From Escherichia phage vB_EcoM_JNE01, in the sequence record OR670491: a stretch of 64,000 nucleotides of DNA; one strand, 5' to 3'. Of the stretch, positions 15,644 through 48,052 are shown piece after piece. The notes beneath the pieces were generated by a model, which made no database searches, had not been told where the DNA came from, and saw nothing but the letters and a program-made list of their open reading frames with translations. Made by a program: the position numbers and the translations under genes. How positions within the stretch are numbered: position 1 is the first letter of the stretch; every line of letters starts with the position of its first letter.

Positions 15644-15906
15644 TGGACATACAATCTCAATTACAATTGTTAACAGTACTTGAAGATGCGGCGTTTCAGG
15701 TTGTATCAGATATAAACAAATTACTCCCACCTGGAACTAAAGTACGTGTTAGAGAGAAGAGTTATAATACTTTCGAAATAGTTGAACAGGAATTAACTGT
15801 AAAAAAAGTAACTTATTATGACTCAACATTATGTATTCAGTGCGAAGATAAAGACGAGATGTTATTGTATTATAATCAACACACAGATATAGAGGTAATA
15901 TCATGA
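15643..15906 (+). CDS. hypothetical protein, dispersed small paralog family B
   Basis: ~85 aa; shares [LV]xD...G[KT]KVR core with 19148, 19398, 22117, 23118; start 15631 or 15643. Confidence 0.45.
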   Translation: MDIQSQLQLLTVLEDAAFQVVSDINKLLPPGTKVRVREKSYNTFEIVEQELTVKKVTYYDSTLCIQCEDKDEMLLYYNQHTDIEVIS

Positions 15907-17045
15907 CACATTTACAAATATACGAAGACCTAATGCACTTGTGCAAAACAAATGAAGCATTTTTTTATGTTGATCATAAAAGTCCGGCTGGTGGTACATA
16001 CCGTGTATTCACCTATCGTCTGGCTTCTTACACAGATTTCAGTCTTCCTAATGCACTGGAAACACGTGGTTCTATGTGGGAGATTGATGAAGATGGTGAA
16101 ATGATTCGTTGTGCTTCGCGTGCAATGAAAAAGTTCTTCAATGCTTACGAGAACCCATTTACAATGTTCAGTCCAGATACAACATGCGATGATATTGCTA
16201 TCGTGATGCCTAAACTGGATGGTTCAATCATCAGTACATTTCGTGATAATGATGGTGAAATCCGTTGTAAATCACATACTTCCTTGTCATCTGACCACGC
16301 AATTAACAGTACTCGACTATTGAACGAGAACCGTAATTTGTATGATTATGTAGACGAAGCTGAACGTTTAGGTTATACTGTGAATCTGGAGTATACAAGT
16401 CCAGAGTACCGAATAGTATTACCATATCAAGTAGAACAGTTATTTGTACTTAATGTTCGTCATCGATTGAGTGGTGAGTTGTTATGCGGTGCTGCATTAC
16501 GTTCGAAGTTCCCTTGTTTAGCACAATACAGTACTAACATGACAGGTAATAACATCTGTTCATCGTTTCCGGTGCGTTCTACCTTCAAAGAAAGTGTAGA
16601 TGAAGTACGTAAAATGGTTGACATTGAAGGATTTGTGTGTATCCTAAATAATGGTACAATGTGCAAATTGAAAACTGATTGGTATTGTTCATTGCATCTT
16701 ACAAAAGACAGTATTCTTATACCGTCACATTTGTACGAAACTGTACTCAATGATGCCAGTGATGACCTGAAACAATTGTTCAGTACTGATGAATATGCAA
16801 TGCAGTTGATATTAAAAATGGAACAGCGTGTCTTTTCATGCTATAATGCTTTACAAGATGAAGTAGAGAGCTTCGTCCAACAATACAAGCACTTGGAGCG
16901 AAAGGAATTCGCAATGAAGGTTCAGGAATGTCTTAAGAATGAACTGAACCGTCAGGGCTTGGCCTTTGCGTTGTACAACGGTAAAGTGGTGAATTATAAA
17001 GAAACTTTATTGAAGTACTACAAAGATGTACTAAAGGATTTTTAG
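15903..17045 (+). CDS. rnlA: RNA ligase 1 (T4 Rnl1-like)
   Basis: N-terminal FFY...SPAGGTYRVFTYRLASYTDF...ALETRG and ligase motif I KLDGS align with T4 Rnl1 as recalled. Confidence 0.85.
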   Translation: MTHLQIYEDLMHLCKTNEAFFYVDHKSPAGGTYRVFTYRLASYTDFSLPNALETRGSMWEIDEDGEMIRCASRAMKKFFNAYENPFTMFSPDTTCDDIAIVMPKLDGSIISTFRDNDGEIRCKSHTSLSSDHAINSTRLLNENRNLYDYVDEAERLGYTVNLEYTSPEYRIVLPYQVEQLFVLNVRHRLSGELLCGAALRSKFPCLAQYSTNMTGNNICSSFPVRSTFKESVDEVRKMVDIEGFVCILNNGTMCKLKTDWYCSLHLTKDSILIPSHLYETVLNDASDDLKQLFSTDEYAMQLILKMEQRVFSCYNALQDEVESFVQQYKHLERKEFAMKVQECLKNELNRQGLAFALYNGKVVNYKETLLKYYKDVLKDF

Positions 17046-18140: not shown

Positions 18141-19085
18141 ATGCCGACTATTACATTAACAGTTGGTTTGCCAGGATGTGGTAAAACTACATGGGCTGTT
18201 GAAGCAATTCGAAAAGCAAAGTCAAAGACTGTCAATATCAACCGTGATGACATTCGTGAGTCAATGGCTGGTTCACATGATGCATACAAATTCAACGACG
18301 CTAATGAGCAGTACGTAACTACATTACAGTTCAGTGCAGCCGATTTAGCAGCTAAGAATTCGTGGAACATCATCGTTTCTGACACGAACCTTAAACAAGG
18401 TTTTCGTGATAAATGGAAAATGTGGGCTTCAGACAATGGGTACGACTACAAAGAAAAAGACTTCTATCAGGATTTTGAACCTAAAGAAGACCGTGGTGCT
18501 GATGTACATGAATTCTTTAAGATTAAAGAATATGTAAAACTTTGTAAGACTCGTAACCTAAAACGCGAACGTTCAGTACAGGACAGTATCATTGATACTA
18601 TGGCACATACGTACTATTACAGTAAAATGCGTATGTTCAATGCGTATGAGCTTCAGAATTATGACTCATTACCGCATTGTATTATTGTTGATATCGATGG
18701 TACACTAGCTCATAAAGGGGGTCGTAATCCATTCGATGAAAGTACTGTCCTACAGGATACTCCAGACGAGGAAGTAATTCTTTCAGTAATTGCAGAAGCA
18801 CAGTTCTTTAAACGCAAGATTATCGTTATGTCCGGCAGGACTGAAGGGTGCAGAGAAGATACTGAGAAGTGGTTACTGACTTGGGGTGTGCCTTATGATG
18901 AACTATATATGCGAGCAATTGATGATAAACGTCCTGATGATGTAGTTAAGTACGAGTTACTATCTAAACACGTTGCTGGGAAGTACACGGTCAAGAAGGT
19001 TTATGATGACCGTGAGGCAGTAACATTTATGTGGCGTAACCTAGTAGGATTGAAAGTATTCCAAGTCGAACCTGGATTATTTTGA
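18141..19085 (+). CDS. pseT: polynucleotide 5'-kinase/3'-phosphatase (T4 Pnk-like)
   Basis: Walker A GLPGCGKTT, NINRDD, HAD motif IVDIDGTLA; overall pattern like T4 PseT. Confidence 0.85.
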   Translation: MPTITLTVGLPGCGKTTWAVEAIRKAKSKTVNINRDDIRESMAGSHDAYKFNDANEQYVTTLQFSAADLAAKNSWNIIVSDTNLKQGFRDKWKMWASDNGYDYKEKDFYQDFEPKEDRGADVHEFFKIKEYVKLCKTRNLKRERSVQDSIIDTMAHTYYYSKMRMFNAYELQNYDSLPHCIIVDIDGTLAHKGGRNPFDESTVLQDTPDEEVILSVIAEAQFFKRKIIVMSGRTEGCREDTEKWLLTWGVPYDELYMRAIDDKRPDDVVKYELLSKHVAGKYTVKKVYDDREAVTFMWRNLVGLKVFQVEPGLF

Positions 19086-30530: not shown

Positions 30531-31055
30531 ATGAAATATACAGTACTGTCAGCACAAGACACAGAGATATGGCTTGGTAACGTATTAAAAACACTGATGG
30601 TTATAAAGAAGTTGATTTCATCTATCGGTGCTATTGAGACTAATCTCAAGCAAGATATCTTAAATGACTTCCACCGAAACGCGTACATGAAGTTCTACTC
30701 CAATATGTTCTATGGACTTTATGATTCTGATGATATCTGCATTTTTCCAAGTGGGAAAGCATGGTCATTAAACAGTGCATGTTTCAGTGATCTAAGGTAC
30801 AGTTTAACCCAAGAACAAGTGGATGCAAGAAAATACTTGGAACAAATCATGGATGATGGTACAATTACTTTCGTATCGGAAATCAGTCATTGCTGGAATG
30901 TCTATGCAGACAAACCATTCAATATTTCAGAAGAAGATATCATCAATTACACCCGCATCATGAGAATTCATGAATGTGTTAAAATGGCATTAAAAGATAT
31001 AGGACTATACGATGAAGCATGTAACTTGGATGAAGATAGCAGAAGTAGTAGCTGA
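30531..31055 (+). CDS. hypothetical protein (174 aa)
   Basis: ORF. Confidence 0.5.
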   Translation: MKYTVLSAQDTEIWLGNVLKTLMVIKKLISSIGAIETNLKQDILNDFHRNAYMKFYSNMFYGLYDSDDICIFPSGKAWSLNSACFSDLRYSLTQEQVDARKYLEQIMDDGTITFVSEISHCWNVYADKPFNISEEDIINYTRIMRIHECVKMALKDIGLYDEACNLDEDSRSSS

Positions 31056-31488
31056 GGAAAGTAAGTGTCTTTCCCAGCACGTAGGTTGTGTAATCGTCAA
31101 GAATGACCGAGTGTTAAGTACTGGATACAATGGTACTCCATCTAAGCAGGTAAACTGTTGTGATGCGAATGCAAATTTGGTTCACGATGGTAAGTTTCAA
31201 GATTGGGTATCTGAGGATGCAAAACATGAACACCATGAGTGGAGTAATCTCCATGAGATTCATGCTGAGATGAATGCAATTCTTTACAGTTCTCCTACAG
31301 AACGTCAAGGTGCAACACTTTACAGTACTCTCCAACCGTGTTATACTTGTTCTAAGTTAATCGCTGGAAGTGGTATTAAGCGTGTTATCTATATGAAAAG
31401 CTACCCAAGAACTCCAGCAGAAGCCATCAAAGTACTGGAAGATGCTGGGATTGAAGTTAACTGTATTTTTGACATGGGATTAAAATAA
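31012..31488 (+). CDS. cd: dCMP deaminase
   Basis: ESKC..VGCVIV..TGYNG..VNCCD..HAEMNAIL..PCYTCSKLIAGSGIKRV; zinc-binding HAE/PCxxC deaminase motifs as in T4 Cd. Confidence 0.8.
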   Translation: MKHVTWMKIAEVVAEESKCLSQHVGCVIVKNDRVLSTGYNGTPSKQVNCCDANANLVHDGKFQDWVSEDAKHEHHEWSNLHEIHAEMNAILYSSPTERQGATLYSTLQPCYTCSKLIAGSGIKRVIYMKSYPRTPAEAIKVLEDAGIEVNCIFDMGLK

Positions 31489-33063: not shown

Positions 33064-33972
33064 TTAAGCTGCACTTACAACATAAGTACATTCAGCAGTA
33101 TGTGAACCATCAACTGTAGTTACGATAACACTAGCATTACCTTCACCAACTAATGTCACTAAACCTGCATTTGATACAGTAAGAACTTCATCGTTAGTAC
33201 TTGACCATACAACATCTTTGTTAGCTGCATTTACTGGGAGTACAGTTGCAATTAGTGTTTCGGTTCCACCAATTGGGCCATTACTTGATGTTTTACTTAA
33301 AGTAACACCAGTAACTGGGGTATTGACAACATATGCACAAGATGCTACTTTAGAACCATCAACTGTTGTTGCGTTGACTGTTGCTGAACCGTTACCAACT
33401 AGAGTTACTAATCCAGAATTAGACACGGTGAGTACTGCGTCATTAGTACTTGACCATACAACTGATTTATTTGTTGCATTTTCAGGTAATACAGTTGCAA
33501 CTAGTGTTTCAGAACCACCAATCTGACCATTACTAGAATTTTTATTCAATGAAATACTTTCGACTGGAACAACAACTGCGACATACTTAGTCGCGTACTT
33601 ACCAGTTTGTACTTCATTGCCATTAGTAAGAATTACTTTATGGGTGAAAAATTTATATGCAAAACCGAGTGCTTCCATAGTTGTTGCATCATAAACTTTA
33701 ACAGCGAATTCATCACGACCAAGTGCACTTGCAATTTCTTGGGCAGTGGCTGATAAATCAAGTAGGTTACGATTTTTATCTCGACCAACCATTGATACTC
33801 TTTGATAAACAGTAGTTGAATCACTATCAACTAAGTCAAACATGCGAGTACTACACTCGTTGATAATGTATAGTTCTTTATCAATTTCTTGAGCACTGTG
33901 ATCAGTTGCTGCAAAAACACAGATACCACCAACGTTGAATGGCAATTCACCAAATTTAGCTATAGGCTTCAT
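33064..33972 (-). CDS. Ig-like (Big_2 repeat) domain protein, Hoc/decoration- or tail-like
   Basis: Only reverse-strand gene; two ~85-aa repeats ...GGSETL.ATVLP.NA.NK.VVWSSTND.VLTVSN.GLVTLVG.G.A.V..TTVDGS...; AGGAG RBS. Confidence 0.6.
   Translation of the reverse strand: MKPIAKFGELPFNVGGICVFAATDHSAQEIDKELYIINECSTRMFDLVDSDSTTVYQRVSMVGRDKNRNLLDLSATAQEIASALGRDEFAVKVYDATTMEALGFAYKFFTHKVILTNGNEVQTGKYATKYVAVVVPVESISLNKNSSNGQIGGSETLVATVLPENATNKSVVWSSTNDAVLTVSNSGLVTLVGNGSATVNATTVDGSKVASCAYVVNTPVTGVTLSKTSSNGPIGGTETLIATVLPVNAANKDVVWSSTNDEVLTVSNAGLVTLVGEGNASVIVTTVDGSHTAECTYVVSAA
33100..33620 (-). repeat. tandem duplication (~255 bp period) encoding two Ig-like domains
   Basis: Repeated peptide blocks in both the - frame and the + shadow frame. 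Confidence 0.5.
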
Positions 33973-34711: not shown

Positions 34712-34906
34712 ATGATGACATGGGATATTCTTGACATTGTTTTGCAGTTCTTGATGATTTTGATTGCAGTTGTTTGGTACAATCACATTGTTCTGTTATA
34801 TAATGAAGTTCGTAGTACTAAAGCAGATAAACATTTGACGTACCACATTTCAATCATCGTAAGTGCTTCAATTGTTCTTCTAACGAACTATTTGTTTGCA
34901 CGTTGA
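34712..34906 (+). CDS. small membrane protein (64 aa)
   Basis: Two hydrophobic segments. Confidence 0.45.
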   Translation: MMTWDILDIVLQFLMILIAVVWYNHIVLLYNEVRSTKADKHLTYHISIIVSASIVLLTNYLFAR

Positions 34907-34917
34907 AAGGTCAACAT

Positions 34918-35670
34918 ATGTCTACACAATCCTTTTTAGAAAAAGCAGGGGAAAAACGTTTACTGATAATCAGCGGGGCTGGGTTATCGGTTGAAAGTGG
35001 GATGGAGCCATTTCGTTTTGATGATGGCTTATGGGATAACTTTCAAATCAATGACGTGTGTAATATTGCACGTCTTAGTTCCAAATATCATATAGTACAT
35101 GCATTCTATAATACTCTAAGAGTAAAATTAGGTTCGTGTGAACCAAATGCAATGCACTATTACATCAAATCATTAGAGGATCAGTACAAAGATAATTTCT
35201 TACACATGACCTCCAATATGGATGATTTGTACACTCGAATCGGTGGAACCGAGTTGAAGCTTCATGGTAATCTACGAGAAGTTATTAAAAACTACTCAAT
35301 CAATAGTGATGACTATGAAGTAATTGACTGTGGTTATGAACCGTTCATTCCAGAGACTGATGTGTTCTCTAAACCAAATGTTGTTATGATTGGTGAATAT
35401 CATCGTTATGTGGATGGGAACCGTCTTCCTATCTACGAAGAACGAAATGAAGTGTTGCGTAGTCTTACTGAAAATGATACAGTAATTGTTATTGGGAGCA
35501 GTGATACAGTACTGGTATGGTCCAGACTAGCTGGGGCGTTACCTTGTTATAGTGTTACTGTTAACGTCAGAAAGAATGACAATGACTTCCTATTCAATGA
35601 ACGTATCATTAAGCCAGCAACTAAAGCAATTCCAGTACTGGAGCCAATCATTAAGGAAAGAATGAAATGA
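34918..35670 (+). CDS. Sir2-family protein (NAD+-dependent deacylase/ADP-ribosyltransferase/NADase-like), no Zn-ribbon module
   Basis: GAGLSVESGMEPFRFDDGLW, TSNMDDLYTRIGG, KLHGNL, VIVIGSSDTVL match sirtuin motifs; ATG 34918 after GAAAGG. Confidence 0.65.
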   Translation: MSTQSFLEKAGEKRLLIISGAGLSVESGMEPFRFDDGLWDNFQINDVCNIARLSSKYHIVHAFYNTLRVKLGSCEPNAMHYYIKSLEDQYKDNFLHMTSNMDDLYTRIGGTELKLHGNLREVIKNYSINSDDYEVIDCGYEPFIPETDVFSKPNVVMIGEYHRYVDGNRLPIYEERNEVLRSLTENDTVIVIGSSDTVLVWSRLAGALPCYSVTVNVRKNDNDFLFNERIIKPATKAIPVLEPIIKERMK

Positions 35671-36224
35671 GTTTGAGAGAAGTACCACTCGGAGAATTTG
35701 GCAAACAAGCAAACTTTGTATTCTGTTACTTCTTTGCACGAAATTGTAATCCATATGAGAATTACGAGTTGAATGATATTCCAGTAGTTAATCTGGTACT
35801 CCTTCAACTCCGTTGGGATGGGTTGATGGGTGGATGTGGAGGAACAGTTGAAGATTCTGATACTTCACTTGAAGCTGCGTTGAAGCGTGAAATCCAAGAA
35901 GAAATGGATTATAATATTTCCATTGAACAGTTGAAACCTCTAAAGACGTTTGAATTGTTCCCTGGTGCTAACACTCATAGCTTCAGTTATGAAGTCACAT
36001 ATGATGAGTTGAAAGCGATTCGTGACGGGTACAGTACTGCTAAACATGCCAGTGCTGAAGTAGCGGGTGTAAATTTATGTCACATTTCTCGATATTCTAA
36101 GGGAAAAAATCGAGAAGCAGGATATAATAATCTCATGACACAAAACTTCATTGGAACAGCTAAGGAAGAATTGCAGTACTTAGTTGAAAATGAAAACTTA
36201 CTTATCAGTTACTTACAAGGGTAG
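35667..36224 (+). CDS. Nudix-like hydrolase (putative, divergent Nudix box)
   Basis: GGCGGTVEDSDTSLEAALKREIQEEMDY resembles GX5EX7REUXEEXGU with altered spacing. Confidence 0.4.
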   Translation: MSLREVPLGEFGKQANFVFCYFFARNCNPYENYELNDIPVVNLVLLQLRWDGLMGGCGGTVEDSDTSLEAALKREIQEEMDYNISIEQLKPLKTFELFPGANTHSFSYEVTYDELKAIRDGYSTAKHASAEVAGVNLCHISRYSKGKNREAGYNNLMTQNFIGTAKEELQYLVENENLLISYLQG

Positions 36225-36888: not shown

Positions 36889-38328
36889 ATGAAAAAATAT
36901 ACAATTGACACAAACGTACTACTATCTGATCCAAATGCTACCATTGCTTTTGATGGAGCAGCTATCATTCTACCGTTCACAGTACTTGAAGAATTGGATT
37001 CAATCAAAAGTCGTAATGTGGATGTTTCCCGTGATGCTCGTGTTGCAATCCGTAATATTGAAGCAATCCTTTCTGATGCATCACATGAAGAAATTAGTAG
37101 TACTGGTGTTAATATTGCTGATGTTCATACTAATATGAGTCCTGAAAGCAAATTGTTTGTTATTACAAGCGAAGAAGCTGAAGCACTAATTCGCACTGCT
37201 GGTAACGAAGAGAAAGTTCAAACTCTTCTAAAAAGCACAGTACCAGATGATAAAATCATTTTAGTAGCATTAGCAACTGATTCAGTACTGGTTACCCGTG
37301 ATATCAATATGCGTATCAAGGCTCTAAGCTACGGGGTGGAAGTTCAAGATTACCGTCATGATATCGTGATTGGTGATAGTGATTTGATTCACATTGGTCA
37401 ACATCACCTTGACCTACATTTCTGGGATGTGTATAGTAATCTGACTGATGTATCTATTCAGTCTGAACAAGTTGGTCGTCGTTTGTACCACTACATTCCA
37501 AAAAGCTTGATTGAACATATCATGCCACAAAATATTTGCATCGGTGATTACCTATATGATAATGCTGATGTTCTATTTGTGTACGAAGGCCAATCTGCAA
37601 TTGAAGAAGATGATGGTACTTTAACACCAGAAGATATTCTTGTATTCCAAGATATTGGACAATCTGTTGCTCTACGTGCTAAAGTGTGGGATATTAAGGC
37701 TAAGAATATTCAACAAGCACTAGCAATCAACAGTATCCTAGATCCTGATGTTCATCTAACAGTACTGTTGGGTTCCGCAGGTACTGGTAAAACGCTAATT
37801 ACCATTGCGACTGCACTTGAATTGGTTCTTGAGAAGAAGAAATATGACCGTATTATGTTCTCAAAACCACAAGATTCACAATGGGCCGAAATCGGTTTCT
37901 TACCAGGCACTGAAATGGAAAAAATGCTACCACATTGTGGCCCTGCATTGGATGCTTTGGAATTCTTACATAAAGATGATGCATCACCACAAGGTAGTAT
38001 TGAGGAAATAATCAAGCGTAATGTTATTCAGTTCAAAGCATTGAACTTCATTCGCGGTCGTTCATTTACCAACACTATTCTGGTTGTGGATGAGTTTCAG
38101 AACATCACACCTGCTCAGGCTAAGACAATCCTTACCCGTGCTGGCATGAACTGCAAAGTGATTATTCTTGGGAACTTGGCACAGATTGATAGTAAATTCA
38201 TTAGCCCAGTTAACAGCGGCTTAACATATGTTGTTGAGAAATTTAAAAACTGGGATGGTTGTCGAGTAATCGAACTCGAAGGTGTTGTTCGTTCACCACT
38301 GGCAGAATTTGCTGAAGAAAATATGTAA
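36889..38328 (+). CDS. phoH: PhoH-like ATPase with N-terminal PIN domain
   Basis: PIN-like YTIDTNVLLSD...; Walker A LLGSAGTGKTLITIA; Walker B-like ILVVDEFQN. Confidence 0.8.
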   Translation: MKKYTIDTNVLLSDPNATIAFDGAAIILPFTVLEELDSIKSRNVDVSRDARVAIRNIEAILSDASHEEISSTGVNIADVHTNMSPESKLFVITSEEAEALIRTAGNEEKVQTLLKSTVPDDKIILVALATDSVLVTRDINMRIKALSYGVEVQDYRHDIVIGDSDLIHIGQHHLDLHFWDVYSNLTDVSIQSEQVGRRLYHYIPKSLIEHIMPQNICIGDYLYDNADVLFVYEGQSAIEEDDGTLTPEDILVFQDIGQSVALRAKVWDIKAKNIQQALAINSILDPDVHLTVLLGSAGTGKTLITIATALELVLEKKKYDRIMFSKPQDSQWAEIGFLPGTEMEKMLPHCGPALDALEFLHKDDASPQGSIEEIIKRNVIQFKALNFIRGRSFTNTILVVDEFQNITPAQAKTILTRAGMNCKVIILGNLAQIDSKFISPVNSGLTYVVEKFKNWDGCRVIELEGVVRSPLAEFAEENM

Positions 38329-38374: not shown

Positions 38375-39655
38375 GTGATAATAAAACATCTGTATTATAT
38401 TGACTCAAATTTCAGAAAATACGATAAAGTTTCAAAACTTAATCCAAAATACATTACAGATGTTATTTTCCAAGAAAAATACAACATAGATCGAAACAGT
38501 ACTGAAATACTACAGGATGATATATCATCATATACACCAAACGTAACGGGTTTTTATTATATAAAATACCCAACTGGTGTTAGAAAAGTTTATGCTTTAA
38601 AATGTAATGAGTGCTCTAAAAACTCAGTATTACATGGCGAAGGAATATATCTGGTTCACTTGTCACACATCAAAAACGGAATCATTTCGTGTGGGTGTGC
38701 AAAACGCACAAACTGGACACCATATCAATATTACATAAAAATGATATCAGAATGTAAAAATCGTAATTGCATTTTTTTAGGTTACGATAAAAAACACTTA
38801 CGTTTATATTGTCTCGAACATGGTTACTGGAATACCACATCCAAAGCACACTTCTTTAATGGGAAAGGATGTAGTAAATGTGGGGACACCAATTCAAGAG
38901 TGTTGAGAACAAAAGACAGTTATTTTCATATATCTAAATTTAAAATCTTAAATGCGTATAATTATCGACGTTCCGACAAGATTGATAGTAGTGGTCGCTT
39001 GCGTTATTGGGAATATATGTGTAAGAAATGTTCACATGATGAGTATGTTAGGCTCGGTTTGTGTAATGGGATTTTTACATCATTTAATAGTGATTTAGTA
39101 AAGGGTAAGAAATCATGTCGTTGTTCAAGTAACTATAGATGGACAGAAAAACAGCGTGAATATCAAATCACCAAACTCCTAAAATCCAATTTTCCTCACA
39201 TTAGCTTTAAAGGTTGGGTAAATAGTTATAAAAATATCCATAGTAAGGCGATTTTAAATTGTAATATTCATAATAATTATACGCAAAAAGTAAACTACAT
39301 ACTTAATAATAATTGTGGTTGTCCACAATGTGCTGGGATGACACAGACAGAATGTTATATAAATGTAATATATGATGTGTTTCCAATTGCTATAAAATAT
39401 GGAATTTCAACACATACAAAAAACCGCGTTTGTAGTCAAAATAATAAATCACCATTTGACGTTATTAATCATGGAATTTGGGATTTTGAAAATCCATATT
39501 TATGCAAAATGGCAGAAAATGAATGCAAGCGAACGGTAAGTCGTGTTCTATCAGAACGCGAGCTACCTGACGGATTTACTGAAACCGCTGAAGTGAAATA
39601 TATTGATGATATAATTAAAATATATGAAAGCTGGGGTGGTATCAAACGAAAATAG
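38375..39655 (+). CDS. Cys-rich multi-CxxC protein (426 aa), very AT-rich gene
   Basis: Repeated CxxC/CxC motifs (CNEC, CGC, CSKCGD, CKKCSHDE, CRCSS, CGCPQC); lower GC than flanks. Confidence 0.5.
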   Translation: MIIKHLYYIDSNFRKYDKVSKLNPKYITDVIFQEKYNIDRNSTEILQDDISSYTPNVTGFYYIKYPTGVRKVYALKCNECSKNSVLHGEGIYLVHLSHIKNGIISCGCAKRTNWTPYQYYIKMISECKNRNCIFLGYDKKHLRLYCLEHGYWNTTSKAHFFNGKGCSKCGDTNSRVLRTKDSYFHISKFKILNAYNYRRSDKIDSSGRLRYWEYMCKKCSHDEYVRLGLCNGIFTSFNSDLVKGKKSCRCSSNYRWTEKQREYQITKLLKSNFPHISFKGWVNSYKNIHSKAILNCNIHNNYTQKVNYILNNNCGCPQCAGMTQTECYINVIYDVFPIAIKYGISTHTKNRVCSQNNKSPFDVINHGIWDFENPYLCKMAENECKRTVSRVLSERELPDGFTETAEVKYIDDIIKIYESWGGIKRK

Positions 39656-43439: not shown

Positions 43440-44057
43440 ATGACAGCAGCCGACAAGTACTGGTGGATTTACAACCACGCCTCATTCGTCAACAAAGATT
43501 TAGTATATCCAAAGATTGAGATTGAACCACATAACGTATGCCCTGATACCAATCGCATTGAAGACCATGAATATCTAAATACAAAGGTTCAGTACTGGGT
43601 AGAGTTGATGACCCCTGAATTCGATGAAGATTCACAAAACTGGATTCTTTCACACGATTATCAGTTAGATTGTGGTGGTGATACCTTTGAAGAAGCAATT
43701 GATGCAGTGTACAATAAGGTTTTGGAACGTTACGGTACATACAAACAAGAAGATGCAGATGCGTTATTTGATTCATTGTTTAAAAAATCATCACAACCAA
43801 ATCCAGCATACCAGCAATTTAGCAATCCACATGAACGATTATACAGTGCTACGTTTCTGTTGTTGAATTACGATGACAAGTTCTCGCTGATTGATAGCAT
43901 AGATACTCGTAAAAATACAATAAAGTCCTTGCAGAAGTACATTGCTTCTTGTACAATAGAGCAATCAGAGAAAGCAAAGATTGCATTAGAAGATGAAGAA
44001 TGTTTGCTTTGGTTGCAAGAACTATCACTTAAAACAGGCGTGGATTTATTACTATGA
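43440..44057 (+). CDS. hypothetical protein (~205 aa)
   Basis: ATG 43440 after GGGGA. Confidence 0.5.
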   Translation: MTAADKYWWIYNHASFVNKDLVYPKIEIEPHNVCPDTNRIEDHEYLNTKVQYWVELMTPEFDEDSQNWILSHDYQLDCGGDTFEEAIDAVYNKVLERYGTYKQEDADALFDSLFKKSSQPNPAYQQFSNPHERLYSATFLLLNYDDKFSLIDSIDTRKNTIKSLQKYIASCTIEQSEKAKIALEDEECLLWLQELSLKTGVDLLL

Positions 44058-44422
44058 ACAGTAAACTGGAAAAACTAATTGAAGAACTTCGACGGATGCC
44101 GCCAATTGAGCAAGTTGGCAATTACAAGCGTTATCGCGTTATAGCACGAGCACTGGATAAGAAAGGTCGAGTACTGGCAACTCGTACCAACTCTTATACA
44201 CAAACTCATCCTAAACAGAAAGGGTTTGCGATTCGTGCTGGACGTCCACAAGGTGAGTTTCTTCATGCTGAAATTTCATGTTTACTGGCTGCACGGGCTG
44301 AAGTTCATACTCTGTTGATTGCACGAGTCAGTAAAGATGGCATTCCAGTTCCAGCTAAACCATGCGAGATTTGCACTTTAGCTATCCAAGAATATGGAGT
44401 AAAAGAAATTATTCACACATGA
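44054..44422 (+). CDS. small CDA-fold zinc deaminase-like protein
   Basis: HAEISCLLAA ... PCEICTLAI (H[AC]E / PCxxC). Confidence 0.5.
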   Translation: MNSKLEKLIEELRRMPPIEQVGNYKRYRVIARALDKKGRVLATRTNSYTQTHPKQKGFAIRAGRPQGEFLHAEISCLLAARAEVHTLLIARVSKDGIPVPAKPCEICTLAIQEYGVKEIIHT

Positions 44423-44643
44423 AAACTGAATACTACGATAAACATACTGTATTCTATACTAAATCCACTATACTGTATTATTACATATTTGAACCTAATT
44501 ACTGTTTACAGATAACAACCTACGCAAATGGTAGATTTAAAGATGTAAACTTCCCATTAACCGATTTAGCAAAACATATCAGTACTGAACATTTCATTAA
44601 TTTAGTACAAGTATATTGTAAACCAAACCCTAACAACACTTAA
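44419..44643 (+). CDS. hypothetical protein (~74 aa)
   Basis: ATGA overlap start. Confidence 0.4.
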   Translation: MKTEYYDKHTVFYTKSTILYYYIFEPNYCLQITTYANGRFKDVNFPLTDLAKHISTEHFINLVQVYCKPNPNNT

Positions 44644-44658
44644 ACTAAGGAGTCAATA

Positions 44659-45021
44659 ATGGCTAAAACAATTTCAATGAAAGACGATACCGTTGGTATT
44701 CGCAAAGATGGTTTCTATGGTTTCTCATGGACTACCCTATTCTTCGGTCCAATCCCTGCACTATTCCGTGGTGATTTCCTAACATTCCTTGGTGTAGTAG
44801 CTGTGTACGTAGTTCTTAACGTATTCACTATGGGTATTCTCGGAACCCTAGCTATGGTAGTATGGGCGTTCATGTACAACAAATATTACACCCAAAGCCT
44901 ACTCAAGAAAGGTTTTAAATTCAATGGCAGTGATGAAGACAACAAAGAAGCAGCAATGTATTTGCATGTGGAATTGAACTCTCATAACACGGTTGATAAA
45001 AACAAAGGTCCAGAGGTCTAA
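44659..45021 (+). CDS. membrane protein (120 aa)
   Basis: Hydrophobic segments; AAGGAG RBS. Confidence 0.55.
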   Translation: MAKTISMKDDTVGIRKDGFYGFSWTTLFFGPIPALFRGDFLTFLGVVAVYVVLNVFTMGILGTLAMVVWAFMYNKYYTQSLLKKGFKFNGSDEDNKEAAMYLHVELNSHNTVDKNKGPEV

Positions 45022-45200: not shown

Positions 45201-45303
45201 ACTTTTGATTGGCTTATTAGCAATGATATTGTTTTTTATATGTTCCGCTCCAATTAATACTATGGTGTTGATTTGGGCAGTTGTAATTTTAGCAGTACTT
45301 TAA
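45187..45303 (+). CDS. small hydrophobic peptide (38 aa)
   Basis: MRIIKLLIGLLAMILFFICSAP...; terminator follows. Confidence 0.3.
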   Translation: MRIIKLLIGLLAMILFFICSAPINTMVLIWAVVILAVL

Positions 45304-45304
45304 A

Positions 45305-45327
45305 AGCACCCTAGTGGTGCTTTTTTC
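45305..45327 (+). terminator. rho-independent terminator
   Basis: AGCACC-CTAGT-GGTGCT then TTTTTT. Confidence 0.7.
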
Positions 45328-45464: not shown

Positions 45465-47267
45465 ATGCAACTAGATAAACTTTACACGGACGTGACTAAT
45501 TTCCTCAATCAGAACAATTCTGACCTAACCAACGAAAACGCGAATAAGGATGCTAAATGTGTCAATACCCATAGAGACTTGCTTGCAGGTATTCTTTCTA
45601 AACACTATTCACAAGATGTTATTGCACCCGACCTGATGCAATGGCATAATGATGGATATGGTCATATTCATGATTTGGACTACTATATTAGCCCGTTAAC
45701 TAACTGTTGCTTAGTAAATTACCCTGATATGCTCAAGAACGGTTTTACTATTGGCTGTGCCAAAATTGAAGAACCAAAGAGTTTCAGTGTAGCGTGTACA
45801 GTACTGACACAGATTGTTCAAGCTGTTGCTAGTTCCCAGTACGGTGGTCAATCACTGGCACATATTGATGTTGGTTTAGAACCATACGTCGAAAAGTCAT
45901 GGAATAAGCTATTAGCTAAACAAAAGAAATACAATCTAAGTACTGAATATATTGAAGAAGAATTACGTAAAGAAGTATATGATGGTTGTCAAACTCTCCT
46001 GTACCAGACTAACTCTATGATTAGTACCAATGGTCAGGCTGCATTCATTTCTTTAAGCTTAGGACTGAATACTTCCAAATTTGGCAAACTAATCACTGAA
46101 CAGTACTTAAAAGTACATGAAAATGGTTTAGGTGTTAATAAGATCACTCCGGTGTTCCCTAAAGTGATTTTCTTTTTACAAGATGGCATTAACATGAATC
46201 CAAAGGATATTAGCTACGATATGAAGCAATTGGCTATGCGTTGTGCTTCTAAGCGTATATACCCTGATTTCGTTAGTGTTCCACTAAATCACAAGGTTAC
46301 TGGGGCATCAAGTGCTGTTACTCCTATGGGATGCCGAAGCTTCTTAGGTAAATGGGAAGATGCTAATGGAAACGAACAGTACAATGGTCGCTTCAACTTA
46401 GGTGTAGTGTCTATCAACTTACCGCTAATTGCTCTTGAAAGCACTTCAGATGGTGATTTCTTTGATAAGATAGACGAGCACATGAATATTGCGTACAGAG
46501 CACAGATGAACCGTGTAGAGCGTTTAAAAGGTACTAAGGCTAAACAGAACCCTATCCTGTTCATGGAAGGTGCTCTTGCTCGTCTTGGTGCAGAAGAAAC
46601 TATTGACAAACTCTTCTACGATGGTTATGCTAGTATCAGTATTGGATATGTAGGATTAGTTGAATGTTCAGAGATTTTGACTGGTTCAATCAGTAAAGAG
46701 TTCTGCATGTCAGTACTGAATTATATGAAAGTGAAATGTGATGAATTCAAGAATGAGAGCAATATAGCCTTTAGTCTATATGGAACTCCTGCTGAATCAT
46801 TATGTTACAAGTTTGCTCGTTGTATCGAGGTAAAACACCCATCAGTACTTAAACGTGACTACATTACAAACTCATTCCATCAACCTGTATGGGTTGAGAG
46901 TACTCCATTCGAGAAGTGGGTTTATGAAGAAGGATTTGCATATTTGAGTGCAGGTGGTAACATTAGCTACGTCGAGTCACCAAATCTTTCAAACAACATA
47001 CAAGCACTAGAAACACTAATAAACTACGCATATACTAAGATTCCTTACTTTGGTATCAACCAACCAGTGGATCGTTGTTATGAGTGTAATTTTGAAGGTG
47101 AGTTCAGTGTTGATAAGCACGGGTTCCATTGTCCAGTTTGTGATAACAGAAATGAGAAAACCATCTCTGTAATTCGTCGTGTATCTGGATACTTAGGAAA
47201 TCCGTCTTCCCGTGGTTTTAACAAGGGTAAACAGCAAGAATGTTGTGAGAGAGTACAACACAAATAA
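45465..47267 (+). CDS. nrdD: anaerobic ribonucleoside-triphosphate reductase (class III RNR)
   Basis: C-terminal Zn site CYECNF...CPVCDN and glycyl-radical motif RRVSGYLG; ORF is continuous. Confidence 0.85.
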   Translation: MQLDKLYTDVTNFLNQNNSDLTNENANKDAKCVNTHRDLLAGILSKHYSQDVIAPDLMQWHNDGYGHIHDLDYYISPLTNCCLVNYPDMLKNGFTIGCAKIEEPKSFSVACTVLTQIVQAVASSQYGGQSLAHIDVGLEPYVEKSWNKLLAKQKKYNLSTEYIEEELRKEVYDGCQTLLYQTNSMISTNGQAAFISLSLGLNTSKFGKLITEQYLKVHENGLGVNKITPVFPKVIFFLQDGINMNPKDISYDMKQLAMRCASKRIYPDFVSVPLNHKVTGASSAVTPMGCRSFLGKWEDANGNEQYNGRFNLGVVSINLPLIALESTSDGDFFDKIDEHMNIAYRAQMNRVERLKGTKAKQNPILFMEGALARLGAEETIDKLFYDGYASISIGYVGLVECSEILTGSISKEFCMSVLNYMKVKCDEFKNESNIAFSLYGTPAESLCYKFARCIEVKHPSVLKRDYITNSFHQPVWVESTPFEKWVYEEGFAYLSAGGNISYVESPNLSNNIQALETLINYAYTKIPYFGINQPVDRCYECNFEGEFSVDKHGFHCPVCDNRNEKTISVIRRVSGYLGNPSSRGFNKGKQQECCERVQHK

Positions 47268-47274
47268 GGTACAT

Positions 47275-47604
47275 ATGTGCGATTTAAAACCAATAGTTGT
47301 TAACAAATACAAAGAACAGTATGATGTGTACATTGGTCGTGGGTCGAAATGGGGAAATCCATTCACCCACATTAAAGACAAGGAAACTAAAGCAGAATTC
47401 ATTGTTGCGACCCGCGAAGAGTCAATTGAGAAGTTCAGAGACTATATTCTGGAACGTATCGAAAAGGGTGAAGTTCAAATTGATGAACTCCTTGAACTCG
47501 CTGGGAAACGTCTTGGTTGCTTTTGTAAGCCCAAATCATGTCATGGTGATGTTCTTGTGGAAATAGTGAGTGCTATACTAGATGAACTATCAGACGATAA
47601 TTAA
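47275..47604 (+). CDS. DUF4326-like protein (YIGRGSKWGNPF motif)
   Basis: ATG 47275 after AAGG; motifs YIGRG..WGNPF and LGCFCKPKSCHGDVL; family assignment from memory. Confidence 0.45.
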   Translation: MCDLKPIVVNKYKEQYDVYIGRGSKWGNPFTHIKDKETKAEFIVATREESIEKFRDYILERIEKGEVQIDELLELAGKRLGCFCKPKSCHGDVLVEIVSAILDELSDDN

Positions 47605-48052
47605 AGACGATTTAGTTAACGGGGAGGGAGTACGATGCTCTCTCTTCGTGAGTGGTTGTAGCCACGGATGTGATGGGTGTTTCAATGAAGAAGCATGGGA
47701 TTACAGAAGTGGATCAAAATTCAGTACTGCTGAAGTTGAAGTTATTCTTAAAGAGTTAGATAAGCCATATGTTACCGGATTATCTTTACTTGGGGGAGAT
47801 CCTCTTATGCCAAAGAATATCAGTACTGTTATTGATTTATGTAAAACTGTAAAAGAATTACATCCTACCAAAACAATTTGGTGCTGGAGTGGCTATACTT
47901 TAGAAGAGATTAAACTAAATCATTCTAAGGATATTCTTCAGTACTTAGATGTTTTAGTAGATGGTAAGTTTATTGAATCCGAAAAGAATCTAAGATTACC
48001 TTTTAGGGGTTCTAATAACCAACGTATTCTTCACAAAGACAAAGATTTTTAA
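47582..48052 (+). CDS. nrdG: anaerobic RNR activating protein (radical SAM)
   Basis: GEGVRCSLFVSGCSHGCDGCFN (CxxxCxxC cluster). Confidence 0.8.
   Translation: MNYQTIIKDDLVNGEGVRCSLFVSGCSHGCDGCFNEEAWDYRSGSKFSTAEVEVILKELDKPYVTGLSLLGGDPLMPKNISTVIDLCKTVKELHPTKTIWCWSGYTLEEIKLNHSKDILQYLDVLVDGKFIESEKNLRLPFRGSNNQRILHKDKDF

Follow-up and report, generated by a model that had tools for sequence, protein, structure and literature searches.

Deoxycytidylate (dCMP) deaminases of the DCTD type are defined as hexamers of ~20-kDa protomers which carry HxE, PCxxC and, as an allosteric motif, G(Y/W)N(A/G), and whose pocket is walled by an aromatic residue (PMC12088426). The paper on phage CBB mentions 'two CMP/dCMP deaminases' (PMC5259590), and the records of phages GAP32 and RaK2 note that one of their proteins, orthologous to the one studied here, is similar to phiKZ ORF260. 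For the phiKZ gene, PHIKZ260, a primary transcription start site of its own is recorded in a map of early infection obtained by differential RNA sequencing (dRNA-seq; PMC8244752). Here, we analyse the corresponding gene of Escherichia phage vB_EcoM_JNE01 (sequence record OR670491), within a stretch of 64,000 nucleotides (64 kb) which is called the window throughout. The gene (44054-44422, plus strand) encodes a protein of 122 amino acids (aa) that is predicted to be a minimal zinc deaminase of the cytidine deaminase (CDA) fold, belonging to the phiKZ ORF260-like family.

The window comes from an Asteriusvirus-like jumbo coliphage; the region matches Escherichia phage Turkey5 (PQ471516, 351 kb) at 99% identity and the Asteriusvirus group (PBECO4, 121Q, UB, phAPEC6, G17 and Sharanji) at ~78%. 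The small deaminase gene is labelled 'cytidine/deoxycytidylate deaminase' in the Turkey5 record, while its orthologue is a 'dCMP deaminase' in the records of 121Q, E9.1, GAP32, CBB and Serratia phage BF, a hypothetical protein in many other records, and 'TadA' in some JGI metagenome annotations. A second deaminase of such phages is already on record and the gene itself is not a new discovery. What is new is that the protein is not a canonical dCMP deaminase, and that it is a member of a large family of minimal phage proteins with a missing or hairpin C-terminus.

A conserved 122-residue protein with the motifs of a zinc deaminase

The open reading frame (ORF) at 44054-44422 comprises 122 codons, starts with ATG and stops with TGA. 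A sequence-only reading of this DNA had assigned HAE...PCxxC zinc-deaminase motifs to it, and that description proved accurate in every part: the boundaries of the ORF are exact, the peptides HAEISCLLAA and PCEICTLAI are both found in the protein, and the catalytic residues are intact. The H71-A72-E73 codons lie at 44264-44272 (plus strand), the histidine being the predicted zinc ligand and the glutamate the predicted catalytic proton shuttle (the role of HxE in zinc deaminases is stated in PMC12088426), and the codons of P103-C104-E-I-C107, with the two cysteines as further putative zinc ligands, lie at 44360-44374 (plus strand). H71, A72, E73, P103, C104 and C107 are unchanged across 100 diverged homologues with 27-53% identity to the query, and the HAE positions are kept in 154-155 of 155 family representatives.

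Profile searches also bore out the assignment to a zinc-deaminase family, with the zinc ligands aligned and invariant. The Pfam family PF00383 was matched by the 122-aa protein with 30.2 bits (gathering cut-off 25, E = 4.2e-7) and by all 100 of the family members compared with it, and PHROG 174 ('dCMP deaminase') was matched with E = 5.7e-13. The AlphaFold2 model of the protein, built with 26 homologues, adopts a CDA fold with high confidence, at a mean predicted local distance difference test score (pLDDT) of 91.6. In comparison to the PBECO4-group orthologues, the ratio of nonsynonymous to synonymous differences per site (pN/pS) is ~0.05 (uncorrected; pN 0.03, pS 0.60), and the gene is under strong purifying selection. 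Between Turkey5-like and PBECO4-like phages, identity is 94-96% for the deaminase protein, against ~78% for the flanking DNA and ~49% for the product of the upstream neighbour. Since PF00383, PHROG 174, the structural model, the invariant residues and the pN/pS ratio all agree, the motif in this protein is more than a chance occurrence. We conclude that the 122-aa protein is a conserved and selected zinc deaminase of the CDA fold which, as far as its sequence tells, is catalytically complete. Conservation in phage UB extends to the 15 N-terminal residues, though the UB record annotates a shorter coding sequence; the start of the deaminase in that record is placed 15 codons too far downstream.

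Three defining features of dCMP deaminases are absent

The family profile was searched against all PDB sequences. The dCMP deaminase of cyanophage S-TIM5 was matched with E = 4.8e-10, that of S. mutans with 9e-8, an M. capricolum tRNA-type deaminase with 1e-7, T4 Cd and human DCTD with 2e-6 each, TadA with 1e-4 (TadA chains ranging from 1e-4 to 0.6) and CDA with 3e-3 or worse. By these matches the family, which is distinct and truncated, is nearest in sequence to dCMP deaminases. The window protein has its modelled fold, HAE and PCxxC in common with T4 Cd (1vq2) and with the S-TIM5 (4p9c), S. mutans (2hvv) and human (2w4l) enzymes, and it resembles them further in the Asn after strand beta2, the N-terminal helix, the 'G-I-K-x-V-x-Y' strand beta4 and the setting in phage nucleotide metabolism.

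However, the G(Y/W)N(A/G) motif is absent, the window protein having R44-T45-N46-S47 (family consensus G-x-N-S-Y). Helix 4 and strand 5 (alpha4/beta5) are absent as well, and so is the aromatic residue of the pocket wall (T4 Y153, PBCV-1 W121). The window protein has a mass of ~14 kDa as compared to the ~20 kDa of a DCTD protomer; it contains a loop of ~10 residues with an invariant Arg before PCxxC, which DCTDs do not have, and lacks the insertion that they carry between beta2 and HAE. In the model, a helix (residues 3-14) is followed by strands 28-34 and 40-45, a helix at 53-61, the HAE helix at 72-80, a strand at 86-92, the PCxxC helix at 105-114 and a strand at 118-121, after which the chain ends. 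Thus, the model has four strands, and beta5 of the five-stranded sheet of the superfamily is absent from it. The last residue, T122, stands one residue beyond the position aligned to T4 Y149, while the chains of dCMP deaminases with solved structures, when aligned to the family profile, extend 23-44 residues past that end point. Judging from these comparisons, the small protein is related to DCTDs yet is not a canonical dCMP deaminase. As it lacks three of the defining features, we see no justification for the label 'dCMP deaminase' under which it usually goes.

A large family of minimal phage deaminases

By tblastn, relatives were found in 195 phage records. They include all RaK2-like jumbo phages (55-96% identity), phiKZ-like Pseudomonas phages (32% identity, E = 1e-14), Aeromonas phages, Ralstonia phage RP13 and T4-like cyanophages. 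An exhaustive profile search of 1.84 billion cluster representatives gave 3,948 proteins at E <= 1e-3, of which 869 remained at E <= 1e-10, so the family comprises at least 869 clusters at 50% identity. The best 150 of the 3,948 profile matches are all single-domain proteins of 96-166 aa; a fused domain was sought as a functional clue and none was found in these 150, nor in 120 relatives listed by a separate indexed search. A narrow-pattern scan of 185,579 cellular species genomes matched two short contigs of metagenome-assembled genomes only. The family looks essentially phage-borne, the cellular scan being narrow in its pattern and hence weak evidence.

Two regions set the family apart. The first is the signature N46-S-Y-T-Q-T-H52-P53-K-Q55 (44189-44218, plus strand), which follows strand beta2 and sits where dCMP deaminases have G(Y/W)N(A/G). 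Its family consensus is N-S-Y-x-K-T-H-P-x-Q, and among 155 representatives N46 is found in 153, K50 in 132, H52 in 136, P53 in 140 and Q55 in 135; the Q rather than K at position 50 is the single departure of Asteriusvirus proteins from this signature. The second is the loop R91...G96...A101-K102 between beta3 and the PCxxC helix (44324-44359, plus strand), an insertion of ~10 residues that is absent from canonical dCMP deaminases (in the same 155 representatives: R91 152, G96 132, A101 124, K/R102 111). Further motifs of the family are L-H-A-E, A101-K/R102-P-C-x-I-C and G-I-K-x-V-x-(Y/H)-(T/S). The window protein answers the description of the family: members are single-domain proteins of 100-140 aa with the signature and the Arg loop, and they end either at the (Y/H)-(T/S) of beta4 or with a short hairpin that follows it.

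The members fall into two length classes. Of 190 proteins, about 100 have their C-terminus 15-17 residues past PCxxC, like the window protein, while about 75 carry 8-15 extra residues, e.g., 'YTTDDGFLYEY'. The model of one long-form relative, P0050 (pLDDT 89.7), has two strands, 125-130 and 133-138, with two residues between them, and its C-terminus is modelled as a beta4-beta5 hairpin without an intervening helix. According to the 2011 classification of Iyer and colleagues, a C-terminal hairpin reportedly marks the division of CDA and blasticidin-S deaminase, while dCMP deaminases, TadA, RibD and APOBECs are said to have helix 4 and a parallel beta5. Seen against this division, the hairpin of P0050 and the chain end of the window protein suggest that the family would join a dCMP-deaminase-like sequence to a CDA-like or absent C-terminus.

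We also considered whether the 74-aa ORF downstream (44419-44643), which overlaps the deaminase in an ATGA, could make up for the lost beta5, either in trans or through a frameshift; at its N-terminus, 'KTEYYDKH', it bears a vague likeness to the hairpin of the long forms, 'DDGYAFEK'. The idea was ruled out, since conservation of this ORF does not reach beyond Asteriusvirus, with RaK2, GAP32 and XaC1 all lacking it, and since short forms ending in (H/Y)-T are the majority across the family.

Coexistence with a canonical dCMP deaminase

The canonical dCMP deaminase which the sequence-only reading had placed at 31012-31488 (plus strand) is indeed a T4-type enzyme, Cd, and the small protein is additional to this true dCMP deaminase of the same genome. 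The window Cd matches T4 Cd (1vq2) with E = 1.8e-34 and PF00383 with 79.8 bits; it has the motifs STGYNG, IHAE and PCYTC, the tail I-Y-M-K-S-Y (Y-x-x-x-Y) and the full C-terminal region, and it also matches the deaminase domain of the PADLOC dCTPase model. It served as an internal comparator. The small protein is only 28% identical to it, over 54 residues. Alignment of the family to the window Cd by hhalign (96% probability, E = 1e-9) covers Cd residues 14-130 of 158; relative to Cd, the small protein lacks a 20-residue insert before HAE and the last 28 residues, and carries a 10-residue insert, R91...A101, before PCxxC.

The small deaminase and a canonical GYNG-type dCMP deaminase occur together in three independent lineages. 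The two genes are 13 kb apart in this phage and 3 kb apart in one locus of unrelated metagenomic phages (L090, 2307-2804 and 6001-6309), while in two others (L065, 5992-6772, and L067, 3679-4459) the family member is adjacent to and overlaps the canonical gene. Such co-occurrence points to a link in one pathway, but it argues against simple redundancy. Since both proteins coexist and the small one has changed far less than the genes around it (94-96% identity, against 49% for the upstream gene), the evidence argues for a role related to but non-redundant with that of Cd.

Possible substrates of the small deaminase

The reading which we favour, tentatively, is that of an unregulated deaminase of free cytosine (deoxy)nucleotides. 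The protein would be an active zinc-dependent hydrolytic deaminase in which His71, Cys104 and Cys107 are positioned as zinc ligands and Glu73 as the proton shuttle. Its substrate would be a free (deoxy)cytidine nucleotide, on whose cytosine ring it would replace the 4-amino group by a keto group (C to U), and the product would feed the dUMP/dTTP supply of the phage for its AT-rich genome. Since it has neither the allosteric dCTP/dTTP site nor the C-terminal helix 4 and strand 5, this stripped-down relative of dCMP deaminases may be constitutively active and free of feedback regulation. The fact that it is kept beside Cd suggests that it probably serves where Cd does not, on another substrate or under another condition. 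Candidate niches would be another phosphorylation state (dCTP/dCDP or CMP/CTP) or activity at times when dTTP shuts Cd off. We propose K50 (Q in the window protein), H52, R91 and K102 as putative phosphate binders; these conserved basic or polar positions (K/R at 102) lie outside the zinc site and would fit a phosphorylated substrate.

The case for a free nucleotide is built on the kinship in sequence, the nucleotide-metabolism context, the adjacency of Cd, these basic residues and the lack of a nucleic-acid-binding module. As to the context, the deaminase lies 1 kb upstream of nrdD-nrdG in the window, a thymidylate kinase gene stands between the deaminase and nrdD in GAP32, and in another contig a deoxynucleoside monophosphate kinase and a ribonucleotide reductase are found no more than 6 kb from a family member.

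Several observations weigh against this reading. The three DCTD features whose absence is described above mean that substrate recognition is not transferable from DCTD, and fold comparison cannot separate TadA, guanine deaminase, blasticidin-S deaminase, CDA and dCMP deaminase. The phage already encodes a Cd. Most family members lie amid small hypothetical genes of early type without a metabolic neighbour, no thymidylate synthase gene was found near a family member in any locus examined, and in at least five IMG/VR lineages the family member has as its nearest neighbours a same-strand amidoligase/glutamine-amidotransferase (GATase) module, 0.3-4 kb upstream of which it lies. Finally, a functional study of phiKZ gp260 (PHIKZ260) or its family was not found in the literature; the sequence-only reading had likewise left the substrate unassigned, and it is not established by any experimental paper that we found.

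A nucleoside deaminase, similar to CDA or blasticidin-S deaminase, which would turn cytidine or deoxycytidine into uridine or deoxyuridine and salvage nucleosides from the breakdown of host RNA and DNA, seems unlikely to us. Homotetrameric CDA and blasticidin-S deaminase (3dmo, 1jtk, 3oj6) are of similar size, have a long loop from beta3 to PCxxC and give the longest structural alignments, and their beta4-beta5 hairpin without helix 4 has a counterpart in the model of the long-form relative P0050, although the window protein has no beta5. The similarity in sequence, however, is ~10^7-fold weaker than that to dCMP deaminases (3e-3 vs 4.8e-10). CDAs are recognised by CAE, PCGxCRQ and the ribose-binding motif N-x-E. 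The window protein has HAE rather than CAE, PCxIC rather than PCGxCRQ, and Y48 where the N-x-E of CDA has its Glu. Among NCBIfam models there was no equivalog match, the tetrameric CDA model TIGR01354, whose cut-off is 113.65 bits, reaching only 14.4. The extra conserved basic residues, in turn, suggest that the substrate carries phosphate.

We hold it to be just as unlikely that the protein acts on polynucleotides (single-stranded DNA, mRNA or tRNA), be it by TadA-like A34 editing of phage tRNAs, by C-to-U editing or by selective deamination of 5-methylcytosine (5mC). The C-terminal helix of TadA binds the anticodon stem-loop of tRNA, and 'TLEPCxMC' and 'DPTAHAE' are motifs of TadA-type enzymes. 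In comparison to TadA and ADAT2, the window protein has neither of these motifs, and its chain stops after beta4, without that helix. Matches of the family profile to TadA are no better than E = 1e-4, the NCBIfam TadA model gave no match at E <= 1, and no tRNA genes were found in the 64-kb window, so the link to tRNA was rejected. The enzymes from NEB are full-length DCTD folds of 154 aa linked to thymidylate-synthase homologues, and neither property is found here. The nucleic-acid-directed activity which the sequence-only reading had put forward as a speculation received no support, as there is no nucleic-acid-binding domain or fusion in any listed relative and the nearest relatives in sequence are dCMP deaminases.

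That suggestion had been tied to oddities in base composition, and this tie did not survive either. The GC content is flat, at 0.34-0.375 throughout the window. What is unusual is the frequency of certain palindromes: not a single GCGC occurs in the 64 kb, where ~28 per strand would be expected, GATC reaches 0.39 of its expected frequency, GTAC is over-represented (1.38), and ten 6-bp palindromes are at zero (CTGCAG, CCATGG, GGTACC, TCCGGA, GCATGC, CAGCTG, CCTAGG, ACCGGT, GGATCC and CGTACG), among them the sites of PstI, NcoI, KpnI, SphI, PvuII and BamHI. The odds ratio of CpG is 0.77 and that of TpG/CpA 1.23. GCGC is missing from every sampled RaK2-like locus, from phages of E. coli, Klebsiella, Cronobacter and Xanthomonas (the window and loci L001, L002, L010-L014, L016 and L018), but not from phiKZ. 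Its absence is a lineage-wide avoidance of the classical restriction-site kind, which could result from host restriction pressure or from a phage-encoded GCGC-specific nuclease. It also suggests that the phage relies on avoidance and not on wholesale modification of cytosine, and that its cytosines are ordinary and unmodified. Since the anomalies are explained by restriction-site avoidance, there is no reason to invoke a DNA-directed deaminase. Moreover, the coding strand has A>T and G>C, which is opposite to the T>A pattern expected of C-to-T deamination on that strand.

We consider it rather improbable that the family forms a functionally distinct clade, in which case its members (~100-125 aa, four-stranded, with an open active site) would be the smallest known CDA-fold enzymes and would be kept beside a normal dCMP deaminase because their substrate is a different one. 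Candidate targets would be single-stranded nucleic acid (DNA or RNA), a cytosine nucleotide carrying a modification, or a nucleotide of host defence or signalling. If this were true, it would represent a new counter-defence or host-takeover activity of phages, and an ultra-compact scaffold for base editing.

Decidedly improbable, in our view, is a deaminase of another small molecule, i.e., a modified base or nucleotide, an intermediate of the amidoligase/GATase module or a defence-related nucleotide signal. The pocket residues conserved within the family are its own and unlike those of any characterised clade, and the coexistence with a normal Cd would fit such a role. The module mentioned above, lying downstream of the family member on the same strand (L019-L022, L024-L026, L029-L031, L036 and L059), consists of Peptidase_C26/GATase-I, a phiEco32-type COOH-NH2 ligase (PF14395), Amidoligase_2 (PF12224) and sometimes GATase-II. 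However, it is absent from the 64-kb window and from most contexts of the family, the association may merely reflect shared early-gene regions, and the function of the module itself in phages is not known (PMC10580990). The small deaminase had no match among PADLOC defence families at E <= 0.01.

It is very improbable that the protein is a partner or regulator of Cd, in a hetero-oligomer like ADAT2/ADAT3 or the two domains of CDADC1, for although both occur together in three lineages, once as overlapping adjacent genes, and DCTD-type rings build their regulatory sites from neighbouring domains (PMC12088426), the catalytic residues of the family are invariant and the two genes lie 13 kb apart in this phage.

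Genomic neighbourhood

The gene directly upstream of the deaminase (43440-44057, plus strand) encodes a protein of 205-221 aa (PHROG 16370) without a known domain. Its stop codon overlaps the start of the deaminase (ATGA), so the two genes are probably co-translated. RaK2 and GAP32 have the same neighbour, again overlapping the start of the deaminase, and members of its cluster stand directly upstream in RaK2-like IMG/VR loci, but not in XaC1 or other lineages. The protein evolves far faster than the overlapping deaminase. It was tried as a functional clue and discarded, as it has no match in Pfam, PDB or PADLOC and is restricted to RaK2-like phages. Its N-terminal ~100 residues are also found as stand-alone proteins of 117-170 aa.

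Downstream, the 74-aa ORF (44419-44643) has an unannotated conserved homologue in phage UB (L002, 7387-7608). It is followed by a gene at 44659-45021 for a predicted membrane protein of 120 aa (PHROG 4915, of unknown function), which bears the name 'HqrC' in the UB record, the origin of the name being untraced. Two tiny ORFs separate it from a terminator-like hairpin with a T-run (45302-45324, plus strand), which would end the deaminase transcription unit. This hairpin is a consensus match only, and terminator-like matches in the window are no more numerous than in shuffled sequence; the same was found for sites in a promoter scan. The nearest downstream gene of known function is nrdD, for anaerobic ribonucleotide reductase (45465-47267, plus strand; annotated in Turkey5, UB, RaK2 and GAP32). 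Next come a DUF4326 protein (47275-47604, E = 5e-25) and an nrdG-like radical-SAM activase (47648-48052, plus strand; PF13353 with E = 6e-44, and PF04055).

Between Cd and the deaminase there is a gene for a SIR2-family protein (34903-35670), overlapping the start of a Nudt16-like NUDIX hydrolase gene that directly follows it (35667-36224); the two may form a pair related to NAD+/ADP-ribose. After them lie PIN-PhoH (36889-38328), a CapR-homology-domain protein (38375-39655), several genes without assignment and the upstream 205-aa gene. At 33064-33972, on the minus strand, there is a protein with two Big_2 Ig-like domains, the only sizeable minus-strand ORF with a domain match in the central window, where its neighbours are uniformly on the plus strand. 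Elsewhere in the window, a T4 Rnl1-type RNA ligase (15903-17045; PF09511 and T4_Rnl1_C) and a polynucleotide kinase-phosphatase (18141-19085; AAA_33 and HAD_PNKP) make up a tRNA-repair pair like that of T4, and a similar pair is found near the small deaminase in L090.

An enrichment analysis of neighbourhoods in 75 IMG/VR loci gave no dominant partner of the family; the best recurring one was the amidoligase/GATase module.

Significance and comparison with described systems

The result is a modest one, inasmuch as relatives of the protein already carry the label of deaminase and the likeliest role is an ordinary conversion of pyrimidine nucleotides. On the other hand, these truncated deaminases form a large family, apparently confined to phages, that is found time and again beside a bona fide Cd. 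Should its substrate differ from dCMP, thousands of annotations would be corrected, and the family might reveal a new step in the nucleotide economy of phages or provide a very small deaminase for biotechnology.

The phage-encoded mSCD-B5 and XP-12 5m-dCTP deaminase are PF00383 proteins as well, and their real substrates are unlike the label 'dCMP deaminase'. The phage deaminases selective for 5mC or 5-hydroxymethylcytosine come from phages with modified cytosine and have the full-length fold described above, whereas the window protein is truncated and has no thymidylate-synthase neighbour, and the avoidance of restriction sites suggests that the DNA is unmodified.

The closest described proteins remain phiKZ ORF260, GAP32_134 and the second 'CMP/dCMP deaminase' of CBB, which are orthologues of the window protein or members of its family, with the same length and the same abrupt C-terminus. 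The orthologues of RaK2, GAP32 and CBB are 55-71% identical to it, and the phiKZ group 32% (E = 1e-14). Between these proteins, which bear database labels only, and that of the window we find no substantive difference.

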